Position numbers and translations under genes: made by a program
The notes under the pieces: generated by a model
The model's input: only the letters and a program-made list of their open reading frames with translations
What the model was told of the DNA's origin: nothing
Databases searched by the model: none
Source: an uncultured Planctomycetota bacterium
GTDB taxonomy: Bacteria; Planctomycetota; Planctomycetia; Isosphaerales; Isosphaeraceae
Direction: 5' to 3'
DNA: 64,000 nt
NCBI GenBank assembly: GCA_963823665.1
Contig: CAWGMQ010000006.1
Coordinates: 896,001 to 960,000, forward strand
In this document: positions 14,883 through 31,322 of the stretch, piece after piece
Layout of the letters: the number at the start of each line of letters is the position of its first letter
How positions within the stretch are numbered: position 1 is the stretch's first letter

Positions 14883-15025
14883 GGGAATTCAAGACACCCA
14901 TCCGTTGTCACGGCCCTCCGCATCCATTCATTCGTGGCACGCAAATTCGGTGCAAAACCACGGCCTCTGGTCATTTCGAGCACGCAGAAGGCCAGTGCCC
15001 GACGCTCGGCAAACGGTGGGTGTCT
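14883..15025 (+). repeat. Hairpin element copy E1 (right arm resumes at 17038-17044 after intron 1)
   Basis: GGGAATTCAAGACACCCATCC ... GGTGGGTGTCT^GCCATCC; core shared with E2-E5. Confidence 0.9.
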
Positions 15026-17037
15026 TTGCGTCAGGAAAAGCTCGAGAAAGGGGGAAGTGCCTCGAAACACAGAAACCTTTCATCGCGACCCTGCGGGTTA
15101 ACGAATCCCGCCCGGCAGAGCCTGGCCGGCAGCCGGAAGCAAGTCTTGCGTGGGGAGGGGTGACCCTCACTGCGAAGCGTAGACAGCGAGTCCCCATGCC
15201 ATGCTATCGAGCCCCGAAATACTCATCGTGGGAGCCTCCGTTGTAGACACAAGCGGGGGCCGCGTCGACACGCCGCAATGGCCTGGCGTGTTCGGTCCTG
15301 CCGGGGTCCAAGAACATGGCGCAGGGACGCGAGGGTTGCTCGGGAACCTGAGAGCCCCATCCGTCTCCACTGACATTTCCGGCTCGGGAACCGGAATACC
15401 AACTCCCCGGCCCACGACCCCGCGTCGGGTCGCTGGGAGCGAACAGGACGCAAGGGTGGTATCGCCACACGAAGGCAACGAAGTGCGGCGAAAGGGGCGG
15501 ATGGGAGTCGGAGCGTCTCGTAGTACCGTTGAAGCCGGGGAACCACTCCGAGGGACCCGGTGGAGGGAAGGAGACGCCATGTCACACAACCGTTGGAGGG
15601 AAACATGGCGGGTGCATCGGAACCCGTGGACGTGTCCACGAAACAACAACGGATAGCGGAACTCGCTCGGCGAAGCCCGGAGATGGGATTCACATCCCTG
15701 GGGCACTTCATCGACCTCGATTGGCTGCTCACAGCTTACTACCGGACCCGCCAAGACGGGGCGGTGGGCGTAGACGGACAAGATGGCGAGGCCTACGCAG
15801 CGAACCTGGTCCCGAACCTACGGTCGCTGCTGGAACGAGCCAAGTCCGGTACGTACCACGCACCGCCTGTGCGGCGAGTGCATATCCCCAAGGCAGGCTC
15901 AGCGACCGAAACCCGGCCACTGGGAATCCCGACCTTCGAGGATAAAGTGCTCCAGCGTGCTGTCGTGATGGTTCTGGAGGCGATATACGAGCAGGACTTC
16001 AAGAACTGCTCGCATGGCTTCCGGCCCGAGCGATCGGCACACACTGCGTCAGAGAGCCTGTGGCAACAGACGATGAACATGAAGGGCGGATGGGTAGTGG
16101 ATGTGGACATTCGTAAGTTCTTTGACACGATTGACCACGGCCATCTACGCGACTTCCTCAAGCGTCGGGTGCGAGACGGAGTGCTGCTCCGGCTCATCGG
16201 CAAATGGCTCAATGCGGGCGTCTTCGAGAACGGGTGCGTTACGCACCCCGAAATGGGGTCGCCACAAGGGGGTGTGATCAGCCCGATCCTTTCGAATATC
16301 TTCCTGCACTACGTGCTGGACGAGTGGTTCGAGCGGGAGGTTCAGCCTCGGATGATGGGCAGATCGTTCTTGATCCGCTATGCGGACGACTTCGTCATGG
16401 TCTTCTCATGCGAGTCCGACGCACGGCGTGTGATGAATGTGTTGCCCAAACGCTTTGAGAAGTACGGCTTGACCATCCACCCGGACAAGACGCGGCTGGT
16501 GCCGTTCGAGCGGCCATCGGACCGTCCCAAACCGGAAGGCGGACCCCCGCGAACTCCACCAGGGACATTCGACCTGCTGGCGTTCACGCATTACTGGGGT
16601 CGCTCCCGGCAGGGTCGCTGGGTGGTGAAGCGCAAGACGTCCAAAAGTCGATTTCGCCGAGGCCTGCGAACGTTGGCGGACTGGTGTCGCAAAAATCGAC
16701 ATCTACCGCTCAAGGTGCAGCACCGGATACTAGGTCAGAAACTGCTAGGCCACTATGCCTACTACGGAATCACCGGCAACTCCAAAATGTTGTCACGGTT
16801 TCGCAGTGGTGCCACCTGGCTCTGGCAGCACTGGCTGTCGCGCCGCGGGCGCGGCCGTCGGATGACATGGGAACGGTTCGCTCGGTTCCTGAAGCATAAA
16901 CCGCTTCCGGCAGCGATTGCGATCCACTCAGTATGCCGTCTCGTAGCGAACAAGTGACATGACGAGCCGGGTGCCTTAATTGGGCAAGCCCGGCTCTGTG
17001 GGAGCCTTGGGGGAGCGATCCCCCAAGGCGACCCGGC
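15026..17037 (+). mobile_element. Group II intron 1 (RT-encoding, no endonuclease domain)
   Basis: 5' TTGCG; DV 16964-16996 with AGC triad; DVI with bulged A ending ACCCGGC. EBS1 AGACAC (15245-15250) is complementary to 5' exon GTGTCT (15020-15025). Confidence 0.92.
15605..16957 (+). CDS. ltrA: Group II intron reverse transcriptase/maturase without En domain
   Basis: GVDG, RPLGIP, GFRP, GSPQGGVISP, RYADD, maturase HYAYYG. ATG at 15605 follows GGAGGG. Confidence 0.95.
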   Translation: MAGASEPVDVSTKQQRIAELARRSPEMGFTSLGHFIDLDWLLTAYYRTRQDGAVGVDGQDGEAYAANLVPNLRSLLERAKSGTYHAPPVRRVHIPKAGSATETRPLGIPTFEDKVLQRAVVMVLEAIYEQDFKNCSHGFRPERSAHTASESLWQQTMNMKGGWVVDVDIRKFFDTIDHGHLRDFLKRRVRDGVLLRLIGKWLNAGVFENGCVTHPEMGSPQGGVISPILSNIFLHYVLDEWFEREVQPRMMGRSFLIRYADDFVMVFSCESDARRVMNVLPKRFEKYGLTIHPDKTRLVPFERPSDRPKPEGGPPRTPPGTFDLLAFTHYWGRSRQGRWVVKRKTSKSRFRRGLRTLADWCRKNRHLPLKVQHRILGQKLLGHYAYYGITGNSKMLSRFRSGATWLWQHWLSRRGRGRRMTWERFARFLKHKPLPAAIAIHSVCRLVANK

Positions 17038-17051
17038 GCCATCCTGAGATC

Positions 17052-17070
17052 GATGGGTGTCTGCCATCCC
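17052..17070 (+). repeat. Solo right arm of the hairpin element
   Basis: gatgggtgtctgccatccc duplicates the spliced E1 right arm. Confidence 0.75.
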
Positions 17071-17781
17071 TGCGCCAAGAAGCTCGGAAAAGGAGGATCA
17101 TCTCAAATGTGAAACCTTTTAGCGGAACCCTGCGGGTAACCAATCCCGTCCGGCAGAGCCGGGCCAGCAGCCGGAAGTGAGTCTTGCGTGGGGAGAGGCG
17201 ACTCTCACTGCGAAGCGTAGACAGCGAGATCAAACGCTGTGCGATTGAGCCTCGAAATTTTCCCTCTTTGTCCTGAGCCCTCGTCCTTGTCTGACGCGGG
17301 GGCCGAGCCGGGCATTAGCGAAACCTGGACCCACTAGCGTGCCCGGTCAGACCGGGGTCGGAGAACATGGCGAATGATCAGTAGGGTTCCCCGGGAACTT
17401 GGGAGACCTTGTCGTTTCCATCGTGACGGCCGGCCGGAGCACCGGCTTACCAACTCCAGGTTGATCCACAGCTCTGTCCCGAGCTGGTGGGGACGAACAG
17501 GGGACGAACGATGGTATCGCCAAGCGAAGGAAACGAAGCGCGGCGAAATGGACGGCAAGGAGTCGGAGTGCCCCATAGTAGTGTTGAAGCGGGGGAACGG
17601 CCCTCCGGACCCTGTGGAGCGAAGGGGGCACCGCGTTGTGGATGGGAAGTTGGAACCACGCCGAGGACACCGTGCCTCACCAGCGTGTCACCGCGAAACG
17701 ACCTAGTCGTGTGAGGGACAGTGATTCCCCAACGTGACGAGCCGGATGCCTCTTCGACGGGCAAGTCCGGATCTGTGGGAA

Positions 17782-20201
17782 TCGCGAAACGAAGCTGCGG
17801 ATGAGTCTGTTATGACTGGATTTGCAACCAGGACATAACCCGATGTACGACCACCGGAACCCTACCAGGACGTGCGGCCGGAGCAATCCGACCGTGCGAA
17901 GCTCTTGGGACAACGTAACCTCACCTTCGGGTGGTTGGATATCCCGTGAGGGAATCCGGCGACTGCGAACGCCAATGCGGTCGGGGGCCAGGGGTGGATG
18001 GCATGGCTAATCCAGGTGAACTGCCGATAAACGTCGTGAGATCCAACAAGCCAAAGGCGCTGAGAGGCTTGAACCAAAAAGGTACGTGGCCAGGTACAGT
18101 GGGATTTCCCATCCCCTGTCGTCGTCATCCGAGCCACCGGCGGAGAGGCAGAGCCTAAACCATCCGTGATTCATCCGTGGAACGTGGTAAGCCCGTCGCC
18201 CTCCCTTCGGGGTAGGACCGTCGTAAGGCGTCGCCGATGGGGCGGCGGGTGGAGGATGAGGGAGCAAGCCAATGCCGTTCGGTAGTCGATCGGATAGAGG
18301 GTGAGTCCTCCCACGGACGACATCCCCTCACCGCGAAAGCGGTGCCGACTTCCCTCAGGTGTTCCGTCACGAGAGAACCTTGGCCAACCGACTCAGGGAG
18401 ACAAGCAGATATGTCGGCGGCAGAAATGCTTGCTGGTGCGGCTCCCGAGCTTACGCCCGACTGGCACTCCATCGAATGGAAGAAAGTCTGGCGCACAGTC
18501 CGTCGGCTCCAGGCGCGTATCGTGAAGGCTGTTGCGGAGGGCAGATGGAATAAGGTCAAGGCTCTGGTTTATCTGCTCACGCACTCGTTCAGTGGCCGGG
18601 CCCTGGCCATTTTGCGAGTCATCAGTAATTCGGGTGCGAAGACTCCCGGTGTGGACGGAGTTCTCTGGAACACACCGGAAGCCAAGTCGGCTGCTTTCAG
18701 CACTCTGCGTCGGCACGGTTACCAACCGCAACCGCTCCGCCGGGTGTACATTCCCAAAAGCAACGGCAAGCGACGTCCTCTCGGAATTCCCACCATGTCA
18801 GATCGAGCCATGCAGGCATTATACTTGCTAGGCCTCGATCCCATTGCGGAATCTCGAGCCGACGGCCATTCCTATGGCTTTCGGCTGGAACGTCGTTGTG
18901 CCGACGCCCTGGAACAATCTCATATTGTCTTGGGTAATCGGAGCGGTCCAGCATGGATTCTCGAAGGGGACATCAAAGCTTGCTTTGATCGCATCAGTCA
19001 TGACTGGCTCTTGACGCACGTCCCCATGGACCGGCAGTTGCTCGGGCAATGGCTGAAAGTGGGTTTCCTGGAGAAGCACGCCTGGTTCGCCACCACGGAA
19101 GGAACACCTCAAGGCGGGATCATTTCACCCGTCCTGGCGAATTGGACTCTGGATGGACTGCAACGGCTGTTGGCGGAACAGTTCGCCGAGAAGCACGGGC
19201 GACAACGGAAGTTTAAAGTCCACCTGGTCCGCTATGCGGATGACTTCTTGATCACGGGCATCTCAAAGGAACTCCTCCGTGACCAAGTGCAACCTCTCGT
19301 GGCTCATTTCTTGAAGGAACGCGGCTTGGAACTTTCCCACGAGAAAACCCAGATCACGCATGTGGAGGATGGCTTCGATTTCTTGGGGCAGAATGTGCGA
19401 CGCTATCGCTGCGGCAAGGTGTTCACCAAGCCGTCCTTGCGAAACGTGAAGACGTTCTTGAACAAGATACAGGAAACGATCGACGGCTCGGGCAGCCTAA
19501 CGGCAGGAGAGATGATCTGGCGTTTGAATCAGCAGATCAAGGGCTGGACCATGTACCACCGTTACGCGGCGAGCAAGCGCACTTTTACGTACGTGGATCA
19601 CCGGATTTTCCAGAAATTGTGGCGTTGGTGTCGACGACGGCACCAGAACAAAGGCCGGAGGTGGATCAAGGAGAAATACTTCCAGCAAGACGGTTACCGC
19701 CACTGGGTCTTCACCGGTACGCTGTTTGACCAGAAAGGCCAAGGCCGGCCGATCCAGTTGATGGAAGCAGCCAAAGTGAAGATCATTCGTTATGTGAAGA
19801 TCCGGAGCGACGTGAATCCCTACGATCCGAAGTGGGAACTGTACCTGGAAGCACGACTGGGTTGGCAACTGAGCCAAACGCTGGCAGGTCGGGGTCGGAT
19901 CGAATACTTATGGAAGGAACAAGAGGGACGATGCGTGGTCTGTGGTCAACCGCTGCGGATCGCAGAGGAAGACTTGCATCTCCACCATCGCATCTGGCGC
20001 AGCCGGGGCGGTTCTGGCACAGCCGACAACCTGGAGTTGTTGCATGCCAACTGTCATCGGCAGATCCATGTCCAAGAACGACTGACGAAAGCGGCCGCGT
20101 CCTGCGAGGGGCGTTCGTGAAGGCTTGAGCTGCATGAAGGGAAACTTTCACGTGCAGTTCTGAGGGGAGGGGGTGGCGGTAACGTCACCTCCTTACCCGG
20201 C
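17782..20201 (+). mobile_element. Group II intron 3 (chloroplast-like class, RT-X-HNH) nested in intron 2
   Basis: 5' TCGCGAAACGAAG; DV 20127-20160; DVI ending ACCCGGC. EBS1 TTCCCA (18106-18111) pairs with TGGGAA (17776-17781); EBS2 AGATCC (18039-18044) pairs with GGATCT (17769-17774). Confidence 0.92.
18411..20120 (+). CDS. ltrA: Group II intron RT/maturase with C-terminal HNH endonuclease
   Basis: [38 protein letters not shown]...HLHH...[10 protein letters not shown]. Confidence 0.96.
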
Positions 20202-20234
20202 CCCGGGGCGGGCAACCGCCCTGGGTGACCCGGC

Positions 20235-20372
20235 CCCATCCAGTTGTCACGGTCGCCCGCATCCATTCATTTGCGGCTCGCTCGTTCGGCGCAAAACCAC
20301 GGCCCCCGGTCATTTCGAACACGCAGAAGGTCAGTGCCCGACGCCCGACAAAAGGTGCGTGTGTGACATCCC
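20235..20372 (+). repeat. Hairpin element copy E2 (left arm interrupted by intron 2; right-arm target reads GTGTGT)
   Basis: cccatccagttgtcacgg...catccattcatt...ggtgcgtgtgtgacatccc. Confidence 0.88.
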
Positions 20373-20698: not shown

Positions 20699-21001
20699 AT
20701 GGAGATTCCGGTGCTCGTTGAGCCCGTGGCCGGGAACGGCTATCGCGCCCACGGGAATTCGCCTCTGGCGCTCAGCGCGGAAGGCAGCACACCCGACGAG
20801 GCGTTAGCGAAGTTCCGGGAGCTGCTCTCGACTCACCTGGCCGGCGGCGCCCGGATCGTTTCGGTCGAGGTTCCTTCGACAAAACATCCCCTGGCGCGTT
20901 TTGCAGGCACGCTCCAGCGCGATGATCCACTCGTCCAGTCCTGGAAGGAAGAGATGGCCGAATACCGTAAGCAAGTGGAAGCCGACGCCGATTACCTATG
21001 A
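20699..21001 (+). CDS. Putative antitoxin (HicB-like N-terminus)
   Basis: MEIPVLVEP..NGYRA...AEGSTPDEAL; overlaps the start of a PIN remnant. Confidence 0.65.
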   Translation: MEIPVLVEPVAGNGYRAHGNSPLALSAEGSTPDEALAKFRELLSTHLAGGARIVSVEVPSTKHPLARFAGTLQRDDPLVQSWKEEMAEYRKQVEADADYL

Positions 21002-21179
21002 ACCCGCTCGTGCTCGACACCGATATGTTGACGCTCTACCGAGAAGGCGACTCCAAGTAGCGAAAATGGACCTGCGCATCGCCGCGATTGTCCTGCACTC
21101 CGACGGTATCTTGATCACGCGCAACCAGCGGGATTTTGGGCGCATTCCGGGGTTGAGGATTGAAGACTGGAGTAGATAG
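20998..21179 (+). pseudogene. VapC/PIN toxin with internal deletion
   Basis: N-terminal VLDTD joined out of frame to C-terminal MDLRIAAI...LITRNQRDF..IPGLRIEDW. Confidence 0.75.
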
Positions 21180-21224: not shown

Positions 21225-21376
21225 GAGGAATCCAGGCACCGATCCTTTGTCTCACGGCCTCCGCATCCATTCATTCGCGGCTCGCTCGTTCGGTGCAAAA
21301 CCACGGCCTCTGGTCATTTCGAACACGCAGAAGGCCAGTGCCCGACGCTCGGCAAACGGTGGGTGTCTGACATCCC
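21225..21376 (+). repeat. Hairpin element copy E3, intron-free
   Basis: gaggaatccaggcaccgatcc ... ggtgggtgtctgacatccc; intact GTGTCT target at 21363-21368. Confidence 0.9.
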
Positions 21377-21379
21377 CTC

Positions 21380-21630
21380 GTTTCCGGCAAGTCGTCGCCG
21401 AGGTCCAAACACTCTACGTACGCTTCCGCCAGGGGGCGGGCAACGTACGAGGCGAGCGTGAAGGGCCTTCCTCCGGAGATGTCCGGCACGGACGCCGAGT
21501 CGTAGCGATCCCAAACGGCGTTGCGGATGCCTCCCGGGTCGTGAGGTCCCGGCGGGAAAAGATCGACCAGCAGCACATGGCAGCCAAGACGAAGCGCCGA
21601 GTCAATCTTGTCCACGAACTCTTCCACCGA
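21380..21630 (-). pseudogene. Internal fragment of a DUF4058-like protein
   Basis: LGCHVLLVDLFPPGPHDP..I..AVW...LASY...AYVE...GDDLPE, cut at E3. Confidence 0.55.
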
Positions 21631-21698
21631 TGAGTCGCGATCTTTATTTGCGGGCGAAACGACCTCCAGGATGGCAACGATTTGATTCCGGCTGGTAT

Positions 21699-21779
21699 CA
21701 GGAATGCCCGGCGGAAACCGTCGGAGATGCAGTGGTACCAGCGCGTTTTGGACAAGTCGTCGAGGTGGGTGCGAGCCAT
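21699..21779 (-). pseudogene. N-terminal remnant of a REP-associated/IS200-like tyrosine (HUH) transposase
   Basis: MARTHLDDLSKTRWYHCISDGFRRAFL resembles the YHCISRCVRRAFL motif. Confidence 0.6.
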
Positions 21780-21969
21780 CGTAAGCAGTGTGTCTCCCAG
21801 GCGATTTTTACGGTTCCACCTTTGCATTCAAACGGGGCCGCAATTACAATTGTCGGCGTTAGTGCGGTCGCCACGCCGCGAACGAACTGGCTCACGTTTT
21901 TCGCCGCTCTGCTGCGACGTTCAGGATCGCTTCGCTCGTGATCGGCAGTCAGCCTGGAGGAGCATCGTC

Positions 21970-23751: not shown

Positions 23752-24053
23752 TCACGGCCCAATCGACTTGGCTTTCGGGCTAATCTTGAACGTCGTATTG
23801 CCCGTCAAGAAGAATGCACCCGACGCATCGGTGATGCCCGAGGGTGCCAAGGCGTTGACCTTCAGCTCGCCTCCGTTTGCGAAGCTCTGTTTACCGGTGA
23901 GGATCGTCACACTGCTCGAACCGGCGGTGTAGCTGACCTGGACGGGGATGGGGCTTGTGACCGTCTTCTTCTTGTGTTTCGACTTCACCAGCACGGTGTA
24001 GTTGCCCGCATTGTCGGCAGCCGTGGGGTCTAGCGCCTCGTTGAAGGTGAGCG
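23752..24053 (-). pseudogene. C-terminal fragment of a surface protein (Ig-like), truncated at E4
   Basis: LTFNEALDPTAADNAGNY...VSY...VTI; no native start before the element. Confidence 0.55.
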
Positions 24054-24196
24054 GGGATTCCAGACACCCATCCTTTGTCTCACGGCCTCCACATCCATTC
24101 ATTCGCGGCTCGCTCGTTCGGCGCAAAACCACGGCCTCTGGTCAAGTCGAACACGCAGAAGGCCAGTGCCCGATGCTCGGCAAACGGTGGGTGTCT
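24054..24196 (+). repeat. Hairpin element copy E4 (right arm resumes at 24929-24935)
   Basis: GGGATTCCAGACACCCATCC ... GGTGGGTGTCT^GGCATCC. Confidence 0.9.
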
Positions 24197-24928
24197 TTGC
24201 GTCAGGAAAGCTCGAGAAAGGAGGAAGTGCCTCGAAACACAGAAACCTTTCATCGCGACCCTGCGGGTTAACGAATCCCGCCCGGCAGAGCCTGGCCGGC
24301 AGCCGGAAGCAAGTCTTGCGTGGGGAGGGGTGACCCTCACTGCGAAGCGTAGACAGCGAGTCTCCATGCCATGCTATCGAGCCCCGAAATACTCATCGTG
24401 GGAGCCTCCGTTGTAGACACAAGCGGGGGCCGTGTCGACACGCCGCAATGGCCTGGCGTGTTCGGTCCTGCCGGGGTCCAAGAACATGGCGCAGGGACGC
24501 GAGGGTTGCTCGGGAACCTGAGAGCCCCATCCGTCTCCACTGACATTTCCGGCTCGGGAACCGGAATACCAACTCCCCGGCCCACGACCCCGCGTCGGGT
24601 CGCTGGGAGCGAACAAGACGCAAGGGTGGTATCGCCAAACGAAGGCAACGAAGTGCGGCGAAATGGGCGGACGGGAGTCGGAGTGCTCCGTAGTAGCAGT
24701 GAAGCGGGGGAATGGGCCCTCCCAGACCCTGTGGAGCGAAGGGGGTACCGTGTCGCGGACTGGAAGCCGGAACCACGCCGAGGGCATTGGACCTCAGAGC
24801 GCGTCACCGCGAGGCGACCAGATCGTGTGAGGGACAGCGACGCCGCGACATGACGAGCCGGATGCCTTAATTGGGCACGTCCGGATCAGTGGGAGCCCTG
24901 GCGGAGCGATCCGCCAGGGCGACCCGGC
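24197..24928 (+). mobile_element. ORF-less group II intron copy A (732 nt)
   Basis: 5' TTGCG; EBS1 AGACAC at 24415-24420; DV GAGCCGGATGCC..ACGTCCGGATC; DVI ending ACCCGGC; no RT ORF. Confidence 0.92.
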
Positions 24929-25236
24929 GGCATCCGTGAGCGCCGTCCCAGGGACCAAGTCCGAAGGAAGGGCGGCAGGAAGCCGCCCCTCACCTCACCT
25001 TCGGGATTGGTACTAATGCGCTAAATCGTTCCACTCAATCGTTTCTCCACCAGTAGCTAACGACGCAATCCGGGAATTCCAGTTCACGCTGAACTATTAC
25101 AGGTGCCATTATGGCGCCCAGGGAGTGTCGCTCCGCCGCCGGCTCGTCTATGGCTACGGGAACGGCTCAGTTTCCGACCATGACCGGCGCGATTTGAAGT
25201 ACGCGGCACGGGATGGAAGCCCGCTTGAGGGAGTAG

Positions 25237-26172
25237 ATGATGTCTCTCGCGATAAGACCGTTAGGCGAAGCGGACCTAGACAACGCCGATCGCATCCTCC
25301 GCCTAGCTTTCAATCAGTTCCTTGGTCTCAAGCCACCGACTGACTTTTTTGGCGACTCCGACTACGTTCGAACCAGGTGGCGCACGGCACCAACAGCAGC
25401 TATCGGAGCCTATCTTGATGGTGAGTTGGTTGGGTCCAACTTTCTCACGCGCTGGGGGAGTTTCGGTTTCTTCGGCCCATTGTCAGTGCATCCAGACCGG
25501 TGGGGCGAGCGTATCGCCTCGGGCCTTCTTGAGGCGACAGTTGGAATGTTTACCGATTGGAAAACTGAGGTAGAGGGGCTTTTCACATTCGCGCAGAGCC
25601 CTAGCCACATTCGACTCTATCAAAGATACGGTTTCTGGCCTCGCTACCTAACGATGATCATGAGCAGGCCCGTCGATTCAGCGATCTCCGTGGCAAAGCC
25701 CGCGTTTGAATTAAGTATGAATGACTCCCCGGGTGTTAGAGAGCTGCGCGAATTGATGGAGGAAATTCATCCGGGGTTGGACCTTGAGCGCGAGATTATC
25801 TCCGTTCGAGAACAATCGCTGGGCCAGGCTGTCACGATCCGAGATGAGGGGCTCCTTGGGGGTATAGCGGTTTGCCATGTAGGGCCGAAGACGGAGGCCG
25901 GTGGTGACGCATGTTATGTAAAATTTGGCGGGGTTCGCCCTGGCTTTGGGTCGGGGCCCCGGTTCGACCGCCTTGTCGACGCATGCGACGCAATTGCCAG
26001 CCACAATGGTGTCAGCCGTTTGATTCTCGGAGTAAATGCAGCTTGCTGCCCTGCATACCGCAGACTTCTAGAACGGGGATTCCGCACTGAACTGCAGGGG
26101 ATAGCCATGCATAGAAACGATCTACCAGGCTATTTTCGCTCTGAATCATACGTCGTCTGCGATTGGCGATAG
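25237..26172 (+). CDS. GNAT-family N-acetyltransferase (tandem GNAT)
   Basis: IRPL.EADL, FFGPLSVHPDRWG.RIASGLL, LYQRYGF, YRRLLERGFR. Confidence 0.85.
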   Translation: MMSLAIRPLGEADLDNADRILRLAFNQFLGLKPPTDFFGDSDYVRTRWRTAPTAAIGAYLDGELVGSNFLTRWGSFGFFGPLSVHPDRWGERIASGLLEATVGMFTDWKTEVEGLFTFAQSPSHIRLYQRYGFWPRYLTMIMSRPVDSAISVAKPAFELSMNDSPGVRELRELMEEIHPGLDLEREIISVREQSLGQAVTIRDEGLLGGIAVCHVGPKTEAGGDACYVKFGGVRPGFGSGPRFDRLVDACDAIASHNGVSRLILGVNAACCPAYRRLLERGFRTELQGIAMHRNDLPGYFRSESYVVCDWR

Positions 26173-26310
26173 CAACCCTTGAGTACGTAATTTTCGATCG
26201 CGCATTTGCGTTAAACGAGATAATTCTGCTTCCGAGGAATTTAACGAATTGCGGTATTGGAAGCTAGGAGCTTGGGCGGATCTAATCGGCAATAACTGGG
26301 GGGCATCCTA

Positions 26311-26500
26311 TTGGAAGACTCAAAGAAGACCAAGAAGCAGTTGTTAGCGGAATTGGAATTGACTCGGCGTACGAACGCATCTTTGGAGGCCGCAATTAGC
26401 GAACTTCGAAAGAGGCAAAGTTTTGCGGAGGCACGCTATCGGAACCTGTTCAATAATGCCGATGACGGACTTTTCCAAACCAGTCCAGATGGGGTTTCCA
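26311..26500 (+). pseudogene. N-terminal fragment of a PAS-domain sensor protein, truncated at E5
   Basis: KTKKQLLAEL coiled coil, then EARYRNLFNNADDGLFQTSPDG, then element sequence. Confidence 0.75.
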
Positions 26501-26644
26501 GAGGTTTCCAGACACCCATCCTTTGTCCCACGGCCCCCGCATCCATTCATTCGCGGCTCGCACGCTCGGCGGAAAACCACGGCCTCTGGTCAATTCGAAC
26601 ACGCAGAAGGCGAGTGCCCGACGCTCGGCAAACGGTGGGTGTCT
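26501..26644 (+). repeat. Hairpin element copy E5 (right arm resumes at 27377-27384)
   Basis: GAGGTTTCCAGACACCCATCC ... GGTGGGTGTCT^GGCATCCC; preceded by a 10-nt stutter of GGTTTCCAGA. Confidence 0.9.
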
Positions 26645-27376
26645 TTGCGTCAGGAAAGCTCGAGAAAGGAGGAAGTGCCTCGAAACACAGAAACCTTTCA
26701 TCGCGACCCTGCGGGTTAACGAATCCCGCCCGGCAGAGCCTGGCCGGCAGCCGGAAGCAAGTCTTGCGTGGGGAGGGGTGACCCTCACTGCGAAGCGTAG
26801 ACAGCGAGTCTCCATGCCATGCTATCGAGCCCCGAAATACTCATCGTGGGAGCCTCCGTTGTAGACACAAGCGGGGGCCGTGTCGACACGCCGCAATGGC
26901 CTGGCGTGTTCGGTCCTGCCGGGGTCCAAGAACATGGCGCAGGGACGCGAGGGTTGCTCGGGAACCTGAGAGCCCCATCCGTCTCCACTGACATTTCCGG
27001 CTCGGGAACCGGAATACCAACTCCCCGGCCCACGACCCCGCGTCGGGTCGCTGGGAGCGAACAAGACGCAAGGGTGGTATCGCCAAACGAAGGCAACGAA
27101 GTGCGGCGAAATGGGCGGACGGGAGTCGGAGTGCTCCGTAGTAGCAGTGAAGCGGGGGAATGGGCCCTCCCAGACCCTGTGGAGCGAAGGGGGTACCGTG
27201 TCGCGGACTGGAAGCCGGAACCACGCCGAGGGCATTGGACCTCAGAGCGCGTCACCGCGAGGCGACCAGATCGTGTGAGGGACAGCGACGCCGCGACATG
27301 ACGAGCCGGATGCCTTAATTGGGCACGTCCGGATCAGTGGGAGCCCTGGCGGAGCGATCCGCCAGGGCGACCCGGC
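26645..27376 (+). mobile_element. ORF-less group II intron copy B (732 nt), apparently identical to copy A
   Basis: Constant offset of 2448 from copy A; the incidental ORF translations are identical; EBS1 at 26863-26868. Confidence 0.92.
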
Positions 27377-27455
27377 GGCATCCCGTGTTACGATCGGAAC
27401 AACCGTAGAATGTTGCCAGTCTCGTCGTCATCGACGCCGGTTGGAGAACGACATC

Positions 27456-30768: not shown

Positions 30769-30812
30769 GGGACGGAAACTGGGACGCACGGGGACGGAAA
30801 CTGGGACGCACG
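30769..30812 (+). repeat. Perfect 22-bp tandem repeat GGGACGGAAACTGGGACGCACG x2 (REP-like end)
   Basis: Seen directly; lies 42 nt upstream of a transposase remnant. Confidence 0.85.
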
Positions 30813-30854
30813 TAGTATTGACGGGAGCCCTCAGTTCTGTGAGCAAATGTTGTC

Positions 30855-30995
30855 ATGCCAAGAACAGCGAGGGTAGCAGCTTGGGGCTTTGTCTATCACG
30901 TCCTGAACCGATCCGTCGGCAGGATGCACATGTTCCGCAAGGAGTCCGACTTCGAGGCGTTCGAGCGTGTCATGGTTGAAGCTCACCTGCGGCAA
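30855..30995 (+). pseudogene. N-terminal remnant of a REP-associated tyrosine transposase (IS200-like)
   Basis: MPRTAR....GFVYHVLNRSVGRMHMFRKESDFEAF. Confidence 0.8.
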
Positions 30996-31322
30996 CGTCC
31001 TCGCCAACGAGATCGCTGGTCACAAGGCGGAGCGGCGGCCGAGGGCCGGAGAAGAATGGCTTGCCGCGACCAAGTACGATGGGGTGGATGTAAAGTCGAT
31101 GCTCATCAATAAGACCAAAGTTGGTTAGGCTTCCTGCCAAGTCTGGTCCGGCAACTTCAATCTCCCCAACTGGCTGTGCCTTCAGCCCACGTATCACCGC
31201 CTCGATGTCATCCTCGACAAGTGTGGCGTTGGGTCCGACCGACTTCAACGTGCGCGACACAACCCACTTCGGCTGGCTCCGCCACGCCGCCGCGAAGTCG
31301 TGTTCCTCCGCGCCCCAACGCC
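30996..31322 (-). pseudogene. Fragment of a dihydrofolate reductase/RibD C-terminal family protein
   Basis: PKWVVSRTL...AGPDLA....GLIDEHRLYIHPIVLGRGKPFF. Confidence 0.8.

Follow-up and report, generated by a model that had tools for sequence, protein, structure and literature searches.

A hybrid ORF-less group II intron, probably spread by retrohoming with a borrowed reverse transcriptase, in a repeat-rich region of an uncultured Planctomycetota bacterium

Group II introns that are devoid of open reading frames (ORFs) and are mobilized by the reverse transcriptase (RT) of another intron were described in Thermosynechococcus elongatus, where TeI4c mobilizes the ORF-less TeI3 introns (Mohr et al. 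2010, PMC2882425). In bacteria, ORF-less introns were reported to be rare and non-mobile derivatives not to persist for long; the same source treats the ribozyme and the RT as co-evolving and mentions an unexplained tree conflict (PMC4424553). In this work, we analyzed two introns without an RT, here called ORF-less and designated A0, in a 64,000-nt stretch (the window; positions 896,001 to 960,000 of contig CAWGMQ010000006.1, assembly GCA_963823665.1) of an uncultured Planctomycetota bacterium of the Isosphaeraceae. They lie in E4 and E5, two copies of a repeated element E, and an RT-bearing relative, intron 1, lies upstream. A previous interpretation based on the letters of the window (the sequence-only reading) attributed the two introns to independent retrohoming of a non-autonomous ribozyme, with an RT supplied in trans, plausibly by intron 1. 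Since trans-mobilized ORF-less introns are already known, this point alone would constitute a new example; the hybrid structure of A0 matters more. The comparative analysis reported below makes it quite probable that A0 is a hybrid, non-autonomous intron that was spread by independent retrohoming with a borrowed RT.

Pairwise alignment confirmed that the two A0 copies are identical (732/732 nt) and that their hosts E4 (24055-24196) and E5 (26503-26644) have diverged, with 10 of 142 positions different and no gaps, including both examples quoted in the sequence-only reading. Identity drops near the intron boundaries, as anticipated there: the exact match around the introns spans 761 nt (24175-24935 and 26623-27383) and thus includes 22 nt of the 5' target arm and 7 nt of the 3' arm, and the outer flanks beyond E4 and E5 are unrelated. 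If A0 had diverged like its host, the probability of finding no differences in 732 nt would be about 6e-24. The divergence of the hosts and the unrelated outer flanks therefore rule out a segmental duplication of the two loci, as well as transposition of E together with the intron. Both copies follow GTGTCT, which is complementary to the exon-binding site 1 (EBS1) AGACAC located in a stem-loop, and E3 is indeed an intact empty site. For E2, a mutated target and an unoccupied right arm were recognized correctly, with two changes in the target rather than the one described.

The host genome (G000; 16.46 Mb, 12 contigs) contains at least 20 places matching the first 224 nt of A0 at 98% or more (40 of 63 candidates scored). 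The ORF-less domain IV (D4) is present in at least 14 copies, 13 of them complete and one interrupted by another intron, C (40 of 69 candidates scored), and at least six copies with the same 5' half bear an RT. Five of the 14 ORF-less introns have the same sequence (100% identity), and no two of these five share a flank; copies are spread over five contigs and are also found outside E. The target of the 20 A-type copies is GTGTCT in 19 cases and GTGTCC in one, and the introns were found inserted in right arms of E, in left arms of E (where they run in the reverse direction), in duplicated arms, and in repeats unrelated to E. Such a variety, with both orientations and unrelated repeats, is predicted by RNA-guided targeting and not by co-transposition. 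The exact junction TGGGTGTCTTTGCG occurs 25 times, in 19 introns, one 5' stub and five look-alike places in another repeat. The proposed independent insertion of a non-autonomous intron is thus supported by 14 ORF-less copies placed in different hosts, in both orientations and in unrelated repeats, with matching pairs of EBS1 and intron-binding site 1 (IBS1). At two places, introns follow one another in tandem, with just one duplicated target arm (about 24-35 nt) between them (L008/L009, contig C10, 1458546-1460035; L010/L016, contig C3, 193347-194658).

The assignment of A0 to group II introns is based on several features. The Rfam model RF02005 matches both A0 copies (along the full length of the model), intron 1 and the second ORF-less intron of the window, B; RF00029, which covers domains V and VI (D5/D6), scored below its cut-off on both A0 copies. 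Inspection of the sequence revealed a domain V with the AGC triad and a domain VI with a bulged A, and the predicted fold has a z-score of -2.67 (20 shuffles). A0 ends with UUGCG...GC, departing from the consensus GUGYG...AY; a 5' UUGCG end was reported for another IIB intron (PMC7923331), and the ends of A0 are a variant of the IIB consensus, not grounds for exclusion. Apart from these ends and the tentative EBS2, A0 resembles IIB-type introns in the sequence features examined. Chance ORFs of 113-160 aa overlap A0; the longest was rejected as a real gene, having no Pfam match and being broken or frame-split in 13 of the 15 related introns compared.

EBS1 and IBS1 match in 6/6 positions at 19 of the 20 A-type sites in the genome, including 13 of the 14 ORF-less copies. 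Across introns with several targets, EBS1 compared by eye with the 5' exon gave 6/6 matches in 18 of 22 cases, 5/6 in one, and mismatches in three, and EBS1 covaries with the target in relatives. Judged by eye, EBS3 can pair with the +1 base in 15 of the 17 introns compared; an automated cut-off of 16/17 gave no column. The tentative EBS2 pairs in 5/5 positions at 18 of 20 sites if G-U/G-T pairs are counted, and its register differs in relatives. CCAUCC near 24527, considered earlier as EBS2, was abandoned in view of its position 3' of EBS1 and its failure to track the target in relatives. Related ORF-less introns at loci L254-L280 have the targets CTGACA, CTGACC, GTGTCC and GCGTCC, mostly followed by CC; these targets resemble small-repeat arms, and every one of them matches the EBS1 of its own intron.

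Comparison with intron 1 revealed an abrupt change of relationship within A0. In 60-nt windows, the two introns are 95-100% identical up to nt 480, followed by 68, 59 and 53%; only five mismatches occur in nt 1-467, and the identity is 99% for nt 1-440 vs 74% for nt 460-548. ORF-less introns of other genomes share with A0 84% (nt 1-440), 86% (460-548), 83% (549-650) and 95% (651-732) of positions; D3 is 86% identical to an ORF-less intron of another genus vs 74% to intron 1, and for D5-D6 the corresponding values are 95% vs 87-89%. The ORF-less D3-D4 module was matched in 33 of 121 genomes of the family, belonging to 16 of 53 genera (G000 counted in; scores taken for six candidates in each genome), and many distinct D1-D2 halves carry it. 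For tree analysis, 66 rows were used, including 16 of the ORF-less lineage, 47 RT-bearing introns (some fetched twice) and three other ORF-less introns. In the D3 tree, the 16 ORF-less rows form one clade (99/95) with none of the 47 RT-bearing rows inside; in the D1-D2 tree, they are scattered among the RT-bearing rows, so that 12 changes are needed, and a clade is rejected (approximately unbiased test, p-AU 3e-41). These comparisons show A0 to be a hybrid, which would have arisen by recombination: its domains I-II, the targeting half, would derive from the resident RT-bearing intron, and its domains III-VI belong to an ORF-less lineage that predates the genus. The sequence-only reading had identified the intron as non-autonomous and missed this hybrid origin, which sets A0 apart from a simple ORF deletion of intron 1. 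The hybrid is not a product of assembly, since the crossover is spanned by a 785-nt contig of X3, a public run, which differs from 24207-24935 at one position.

A second pair, in genome G003, displays the same pattern: its ORF-less and RT-bearing introns are 98% identical in D1-D2, with dense mismatches from nt 468 as in A0. These two pairs stand out in the alignments as the clear cases of a recent swap; for most other rows, the nearest RT-bearing and the nearest ORF-less D1-D2 are about equally close. Intron 1 and an RT-bearing intron of genome G014 are 82-93% identical in most windows and 68% over the EBS1 region. Given this roughly even similarity, it is simplest to suppose that intron 1's family was the source of the 5' half and the ORF-less element its recipient. 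The predicted D4 structure was compared in 27 sequences (25 of 29 loci and the two window copies): four helices are kept, 94% of cells are paired vs 90.6% after shuffling (0/500), and two-sided changes are found in 8 of 23 pairs (11/500). Because the structure was derived from the very alignment used to test it, and the sequences share ancestry, these figures are no more than supportive of a D4 pairing conserved across genera.

With about equal weight for and against, we propose that the old, family-wide ORF-less lineage persists, with no RT of its own, by repeated recombination with a resident RT-bearing relative at a conserved D2-D3 stretch, gaining the targeting half of that relative, and that its compact, conserved D4 serves as a generalist RT-docking module. 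If true, group II ribozymes would not always evolve as a unit with their RTs, contrary to the rule, and the ORF-less introns of bacteria would have to be seen as enduring parasites of autonomous introns instead of transient products of decay.

Table 1. Features of the window discussed in the text (positions of the 64,000-nt stretch)
Feature	Position	Strand	Remarks
ORF-less group II intron A0 in E4	24197..24928	+	ends 5' TTGCG...ACCCGGC 3', common to 13 complete genomic copies; RF02005 138.4 bits (cut-off 49)
ORF-less group II intron A0 in E5	26645..27376	+	100% identical to E4 copy
Domains I-II of A0	24197..24663	+	99% identical to intron 1; probable crossover about 24639-24663
Domains III-VI of A0, ORF-less lineage	24664..24928	+	dense mismatches to intron 1 from nt 468
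D4 of A0	about 24748-24852	+	start-codon-like region kept: ACG where intron 1 has ATG
Domains V and VI of A0	24855..24928	+	AGC triad 24856-24858, bulged A 24922; by inspection
EBS1 AGACAC	24415..24420; second copy 26863-26868	+	pairs with IBS1 GTGTCT
Tentative EBS2 UCAUC	24393..24397	+	pairs with GRTGG
EBS3 (C)	24479	+	pairs with +1 G
Repeat E4, about 150 nt	24055..24935	+	imperfect inverted arms, A0 in right arm
Repeat E5	26503..27383	+	right arm split by A0
Repeat E3	21227..21375	+	intact empty target CGGTGG GTGTCT/GACATCC (insertion point at slash)
Repeat E2	20235..20372	+	right arm altered to GGTGC GTGTGT; left arm starts at intron B 3' end
Repeat E1	14884..15025	+	host of intron 1
Intron 1 (A-ORF), RT-bearing	15026..17037	+	same EBS1 and target; candidate helper
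RT/maturase RT-A, 450 aa	15605..16957	+	YADD motif; TIGR04416 326.7 bits (cut-off 300); Pfam RVT_1 only
ORF-less intron B	17071..20234 (17071-17781 + 20202-20234)	+	EBS1 UGUCUG; 5' flank rearranged
Intron C (RT, maturase, HNH)	17782..20201	+	nested at D5/D6 junction of B

We infer the following course for the spread of A0. The intron would be transcribed from host promoters and spliced with the RT/maturase of a related intron, most likely one of intron 1's family, and would reverse-splice into RTGG GTGTCT/R through EBS-IBS pairing. Priming would probably come from the replication fork, which is proposed because RT-A has no endonuclease domain detectable in Pfam and TIGR04416 profile searches. 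The target motif, as an arm of the ~150-nt repeat and of other small repeats, would provide many, mostly intergenic, targets; E4 and E5 would have been invaded separately, after their divergence. As for the helper, intron 1 is the only one of the six RT-bearing copies that combines an open 450-aa frame with an uninterrupted ribozyme: the frame is open in two copies and carries one-base homopolymer indels, which may be real mutations or sequencing errors, in the other four, and intron C interrupts four of the six. For this reason, the RT of intron 1, suggested as the helper in the sequence-only reading, is the best candidate. The named relatives of RT-A are mostly from Planctomycetota, and its best plasmid matches (52-58%) are annotated as ltrA only or unannotated. 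By resemblance, RT-A may be of class E/F, in agreement with the absence of the endonuclease.

Several observations weigh against this interpretation. The D4 of A0, usually the main RT-binding site, is only 50-59% identical to that of intron 1; DIVa was described as the main RT site, with most heterologous RT-RNA pairs losing mobility (PMC4615759), which makes a long-lived foreign D4 surprising and is also a reason for caution. The monophyly of D3 is partly circular because eight of the 16 ORF-less rows were retrieved using A0's own D3-D4 as the query (8 of 29 loci used; the other 21 were partial, interrupted, duplicate or without a clean 5' end), and three ORF-less rows outside the clade (G014_0, G022_del and G034_0), which we regard as separate ORF losses, were labelled apart after their identities had been seen. 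The D3 alignment has only about 104 columns, and in a 19-row test of D3 alone, forcing A0 together with intron 1 was not rejected (p-AU 0.062; 0.071 for the G003 pair). G021_0 was left out of both the 19-row and the 66-row tests, and G034_0 and G046 of the 19-row test. The conflict between the D1-D2 and D3 trees is independent of this selection of rows. Genome G001, of the same genus, has copies of E at 89-93% identity and B-type introns; no A-type intron and no close intact RT were found among its candidates scored, in an assembly that is 84% complete, a limit that also counts on this side. The missing A-type intron itself counts in favor of the proposed course, as it fits a later arrival of A. 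Finally, no contig from the public runs spans both A0 copies of the window or the E4 junction, and mosaic patches among the copies point to recombination that could homogenise old insertions.

The last point leads to the strongest, though unlikely, alternative, in which the insertions are older, the copies were homogenised by gene conversion, and A0 may no longer move. Patchy variants within nt 1-500 are indeed common to ORF-less and RT-bearing copies, and two C-interrupted copies, one of the B type and one of the A0 type, end with intron 1's D6, so the identity of A0 may partly reflect gene conversion rather than recency. Even so, the original site-specific insertions would still be required, E3 and many other perfect targets are unoccupied, no A-type copy was seen among the G001 candidates scored, and the D4 pairing is kept across genera. 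Less likely still is retrohoming of A0 in trans with a different RT, for instance that of intron C (seven identical copies) or a 479-aa RT (three copies). No RT family is more uniform than that of intron C, with 100% identity, four of the six A-type RT frames carry single-base indels, and A0's D4 is not that of intron 1; these proteins are, however, only 34% (C) and 38-39% (479-aa RT) identical to RT-A, as are the other RTs of the genome in general (34-39%, besides fragments at 53-62%), and in G003 and G014 ORF-less introns are found beside A-like RT introns with the same EBS1.

Movement of E and the intron as a unit, segmental duplication or an assembly artefact has very little probability. 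A distance of 2.4 kb separates the two like-oriented copies, homopolymer indels occur in the assembly, and no contig crosses both copies, but the host differences and outer flanks described above and the presence of copies on five contigs and outside E argue against such an origin, as do public contigs that reproduce two other 3' junctions and the E5 5' junction. These contigs come from four of 21 public runs, compared as contigs only and possibly from the same campaign as the assembly. Two other assembled copies are matched in this way, through the 3' flank of the X3 contig and one flank from run X1; the E5 5' junction is found in a contig of X1. The X1 depth on the intron (28 and 15, vs 2.7 on a neighbouring gene) is consistent with several intron copies, without yielding a count. 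Run X2 covers the neighbouring GNAT gene and little of A0 D3-D4, and is uninformative on absence; the RNA run X15 gave short, mostly diverged pieces and no evidence of A0 expression. Equally improbable is that A0 arose recently from intron 1 by plain loss of the ORF, with the D3-D4 likeness among ORF-less introns due to convergence: despite the 99% identity in D1-D2, the existence of such cases in the family (G014_0 and G022_del) and the non-significant D3-only test, this reading is largely refuted by the D3, D4 and D5-D6 identities given above. The true deletion G014_0 keeps 96-97% in D3.

The other two introns of the region add further layers. Intron B shares the ORF-less D3-D4 and inserts at CAGACA/CCC, on the opposite strand of A0's motif; its 3' end is carried by the left arm of E2. 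At 17038-17071, its 5' flank is a duplicated right arm instead of the CAGACA target, the first base of the intron is changed, and the left part of E2 was probably lost by a deletion there. Intron C is present seven times, in identical form, in the window and on contigs C3, C6, C8 and C11. Each copy is inserted after GGATCT GTGGGAR, at the D5/D6 junction of an A- or B-type intron, a site that pairs with its putative EBS1 UUCCCA and EBS2 AGAUCC. Seven of the eight copies seen with the full site are invaded, while the 13 complete A0 copies (GGATCA) and intron 1 (GGCTCT), with altered sites, are not, which, as the copies are not independent, only hints at an escape from intron C through a changed site. 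That every uninvaded copy has an altered site proved false, as an RT-bearing copy on contig C7 is intact in this respect and yet uninvaded. The two C-interrupted copies ending with intron 1's D6 (L074 and L075; contig C8, about 517-520 kb and 675-679 kb) suggest an exchange between intron copies via identical copies of C; the B-type member of this pair has its own EBS1, GGACGC, matching GCGTCC. Parasitism at this locus thus has three levels: the repeat is occupied by two introns, one for each of its strands, and the catalytic end of these introns is in turn occupied by a third.

The repeat itself was surveyed across the genome. The motif TGGGTGTCT, which makes up both arms of E, occurs 334 times vs 45 for a control, and E has at least 43 genomic matches (40 of 100 candidates scored), of which 39 distinct near-full copies were aligned. 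E has imperfect inward-facing inverted arms, tandem arm duplications, and dispersed diverged copies. Folding of E gave no stable hairpin (z-scores of -1.19 and -0.97), so a strong hairpin is unsupported. An attC or integron array was also rejected: there are no RYYYAAC/GTTRRRY boxes at the ends of E, a search for tyrosine recombinases yielded 0/20 PF00589 matches in the window or the contig C11 cluster at 545-585 kb, and 89 ORFs from five E-rich loci and the window encode mixed functions, including ribosomal protein L19 and nonribosomal peptide synthetase modules, with no clean cassette array. Among the 11 Y1_Tnp matches in the genome, the motif lies within 1.5 kb of three and cleanly flanks none of the transposase genes. 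E is best called a repeat resembling repetitive extragenic palindromic (REP) sequences or miniature inverted-repeat transposable elements. At one of the three Y1_Tnp loci near the motif, L136 (contig C8, 1768807), an E-like copy interrupts a Y1 transposase gene resembling REP-associated tyrosine transposases (RAYTs).

Several side observations concern the surroundings. E often lies at junctions of gene fragments, and the adjacent genes look truncated: 26311-26500 at E5 has a sensor-like N-terminus that we presume to resemble PAS, lacking Pfam support; 23752-24055 is a C-terminal fragment at E4; and 21414-21827, with no Pfam match, is presumably a DUF4058-like fragment. A probable antitoxin-toxin pair lies at 20699-21178, with one gene internally deleted and frame-shifted; we take this gene to be PIN-like, though it has no Pfam match. 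The segment 24937-25101 appears in several diverged contigs of runs X1 and X2 and is probably another small repeated element or a transposon end. Tandem GGGACGGAAACTGGGACGCAC repeats are found at 30770-31160, upstream of a gene fragment that, by its motif, is presumably the start of a Y1 transposase.

The ORF-less D3-D4 on many D1-D2 halves provides a natural domain-swap series for the determinants of RT specificity, and A0, which is 732 nt long, can be retargeted and might work with more than one RT, could become a tool for gene targeting. No report of repeated half-swapping or of this ORF-less lineage was found in the literature searched for repeat-targeting or half-swapping introns, with subscription papers mostly outside its scope.

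Among the known systems, TeI3/TeI4 comes closest (PMC2882425). As with TeI3, A0 has no RT ORF, a related RT-bearing intron resides in the same genome, and many copies match their sites through EBS; identical introns in diverged hosts are likewise taken as recent independent insertions. In both systems, copies without an ORF are more numerous than those with an RT, the EBS varies between families, matched sites lie in intergenic or mobile DNA, and twintrons occur. In contrast to A0, TeI3 arose once, by ORF deletion within one genome, and kept ORF remnants; A0 is not an ORF-deletion derivative of its resident partner, as its 3' half comes from a separate lineage found in many genera, onto which the resident RT intron's 5' half has been grafted. 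In addition, unlike in TeI3/TeI4, RT-A has no endonuclease domain, and insertion is directed to either strand of a short repeat arm. The nested introns of Methanosarcina acetivorans (Dai and Zimmerly 2003, as summarized in PMC4424553) resemble the present case in that introns home into introns, copies recombine, and stacks are intergenic; judging by a title, they home into intron ORFs, whereas intron C targets the D5/D6 junction. RmInt1 and RmInt2 of Sinorhizobium meliloti (PMC4615759, PMC5894124) are also of the IIB type, with an RT that lacks the endonuclease and can act in trans and with several copies in repeated DNA, but each encodes its own RT, and A0 does not. IIC and IIC-attC introns likewise target a repeated hairpin-like intergenic element (PMC7923331); they have an EBS1 of 3-4 bp, whereas A0 has a 6-bp EBS1 and a IIB-type domain I, and E has neither attC boxes nor an adjacent integrase. 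With REP sequences, REPINs (paired REPs) and terminal inverted repeats served by RAYT-type transposases (PMC3733652, PMC6006769), E shares inverted arms, arm duplications and many copies, and differs by having no GTAG/CGTC tag seen, weak folding, and no cleanly motif-flanked transposase; REPs are also reported as targets of insertion sequences (PMC1525189).

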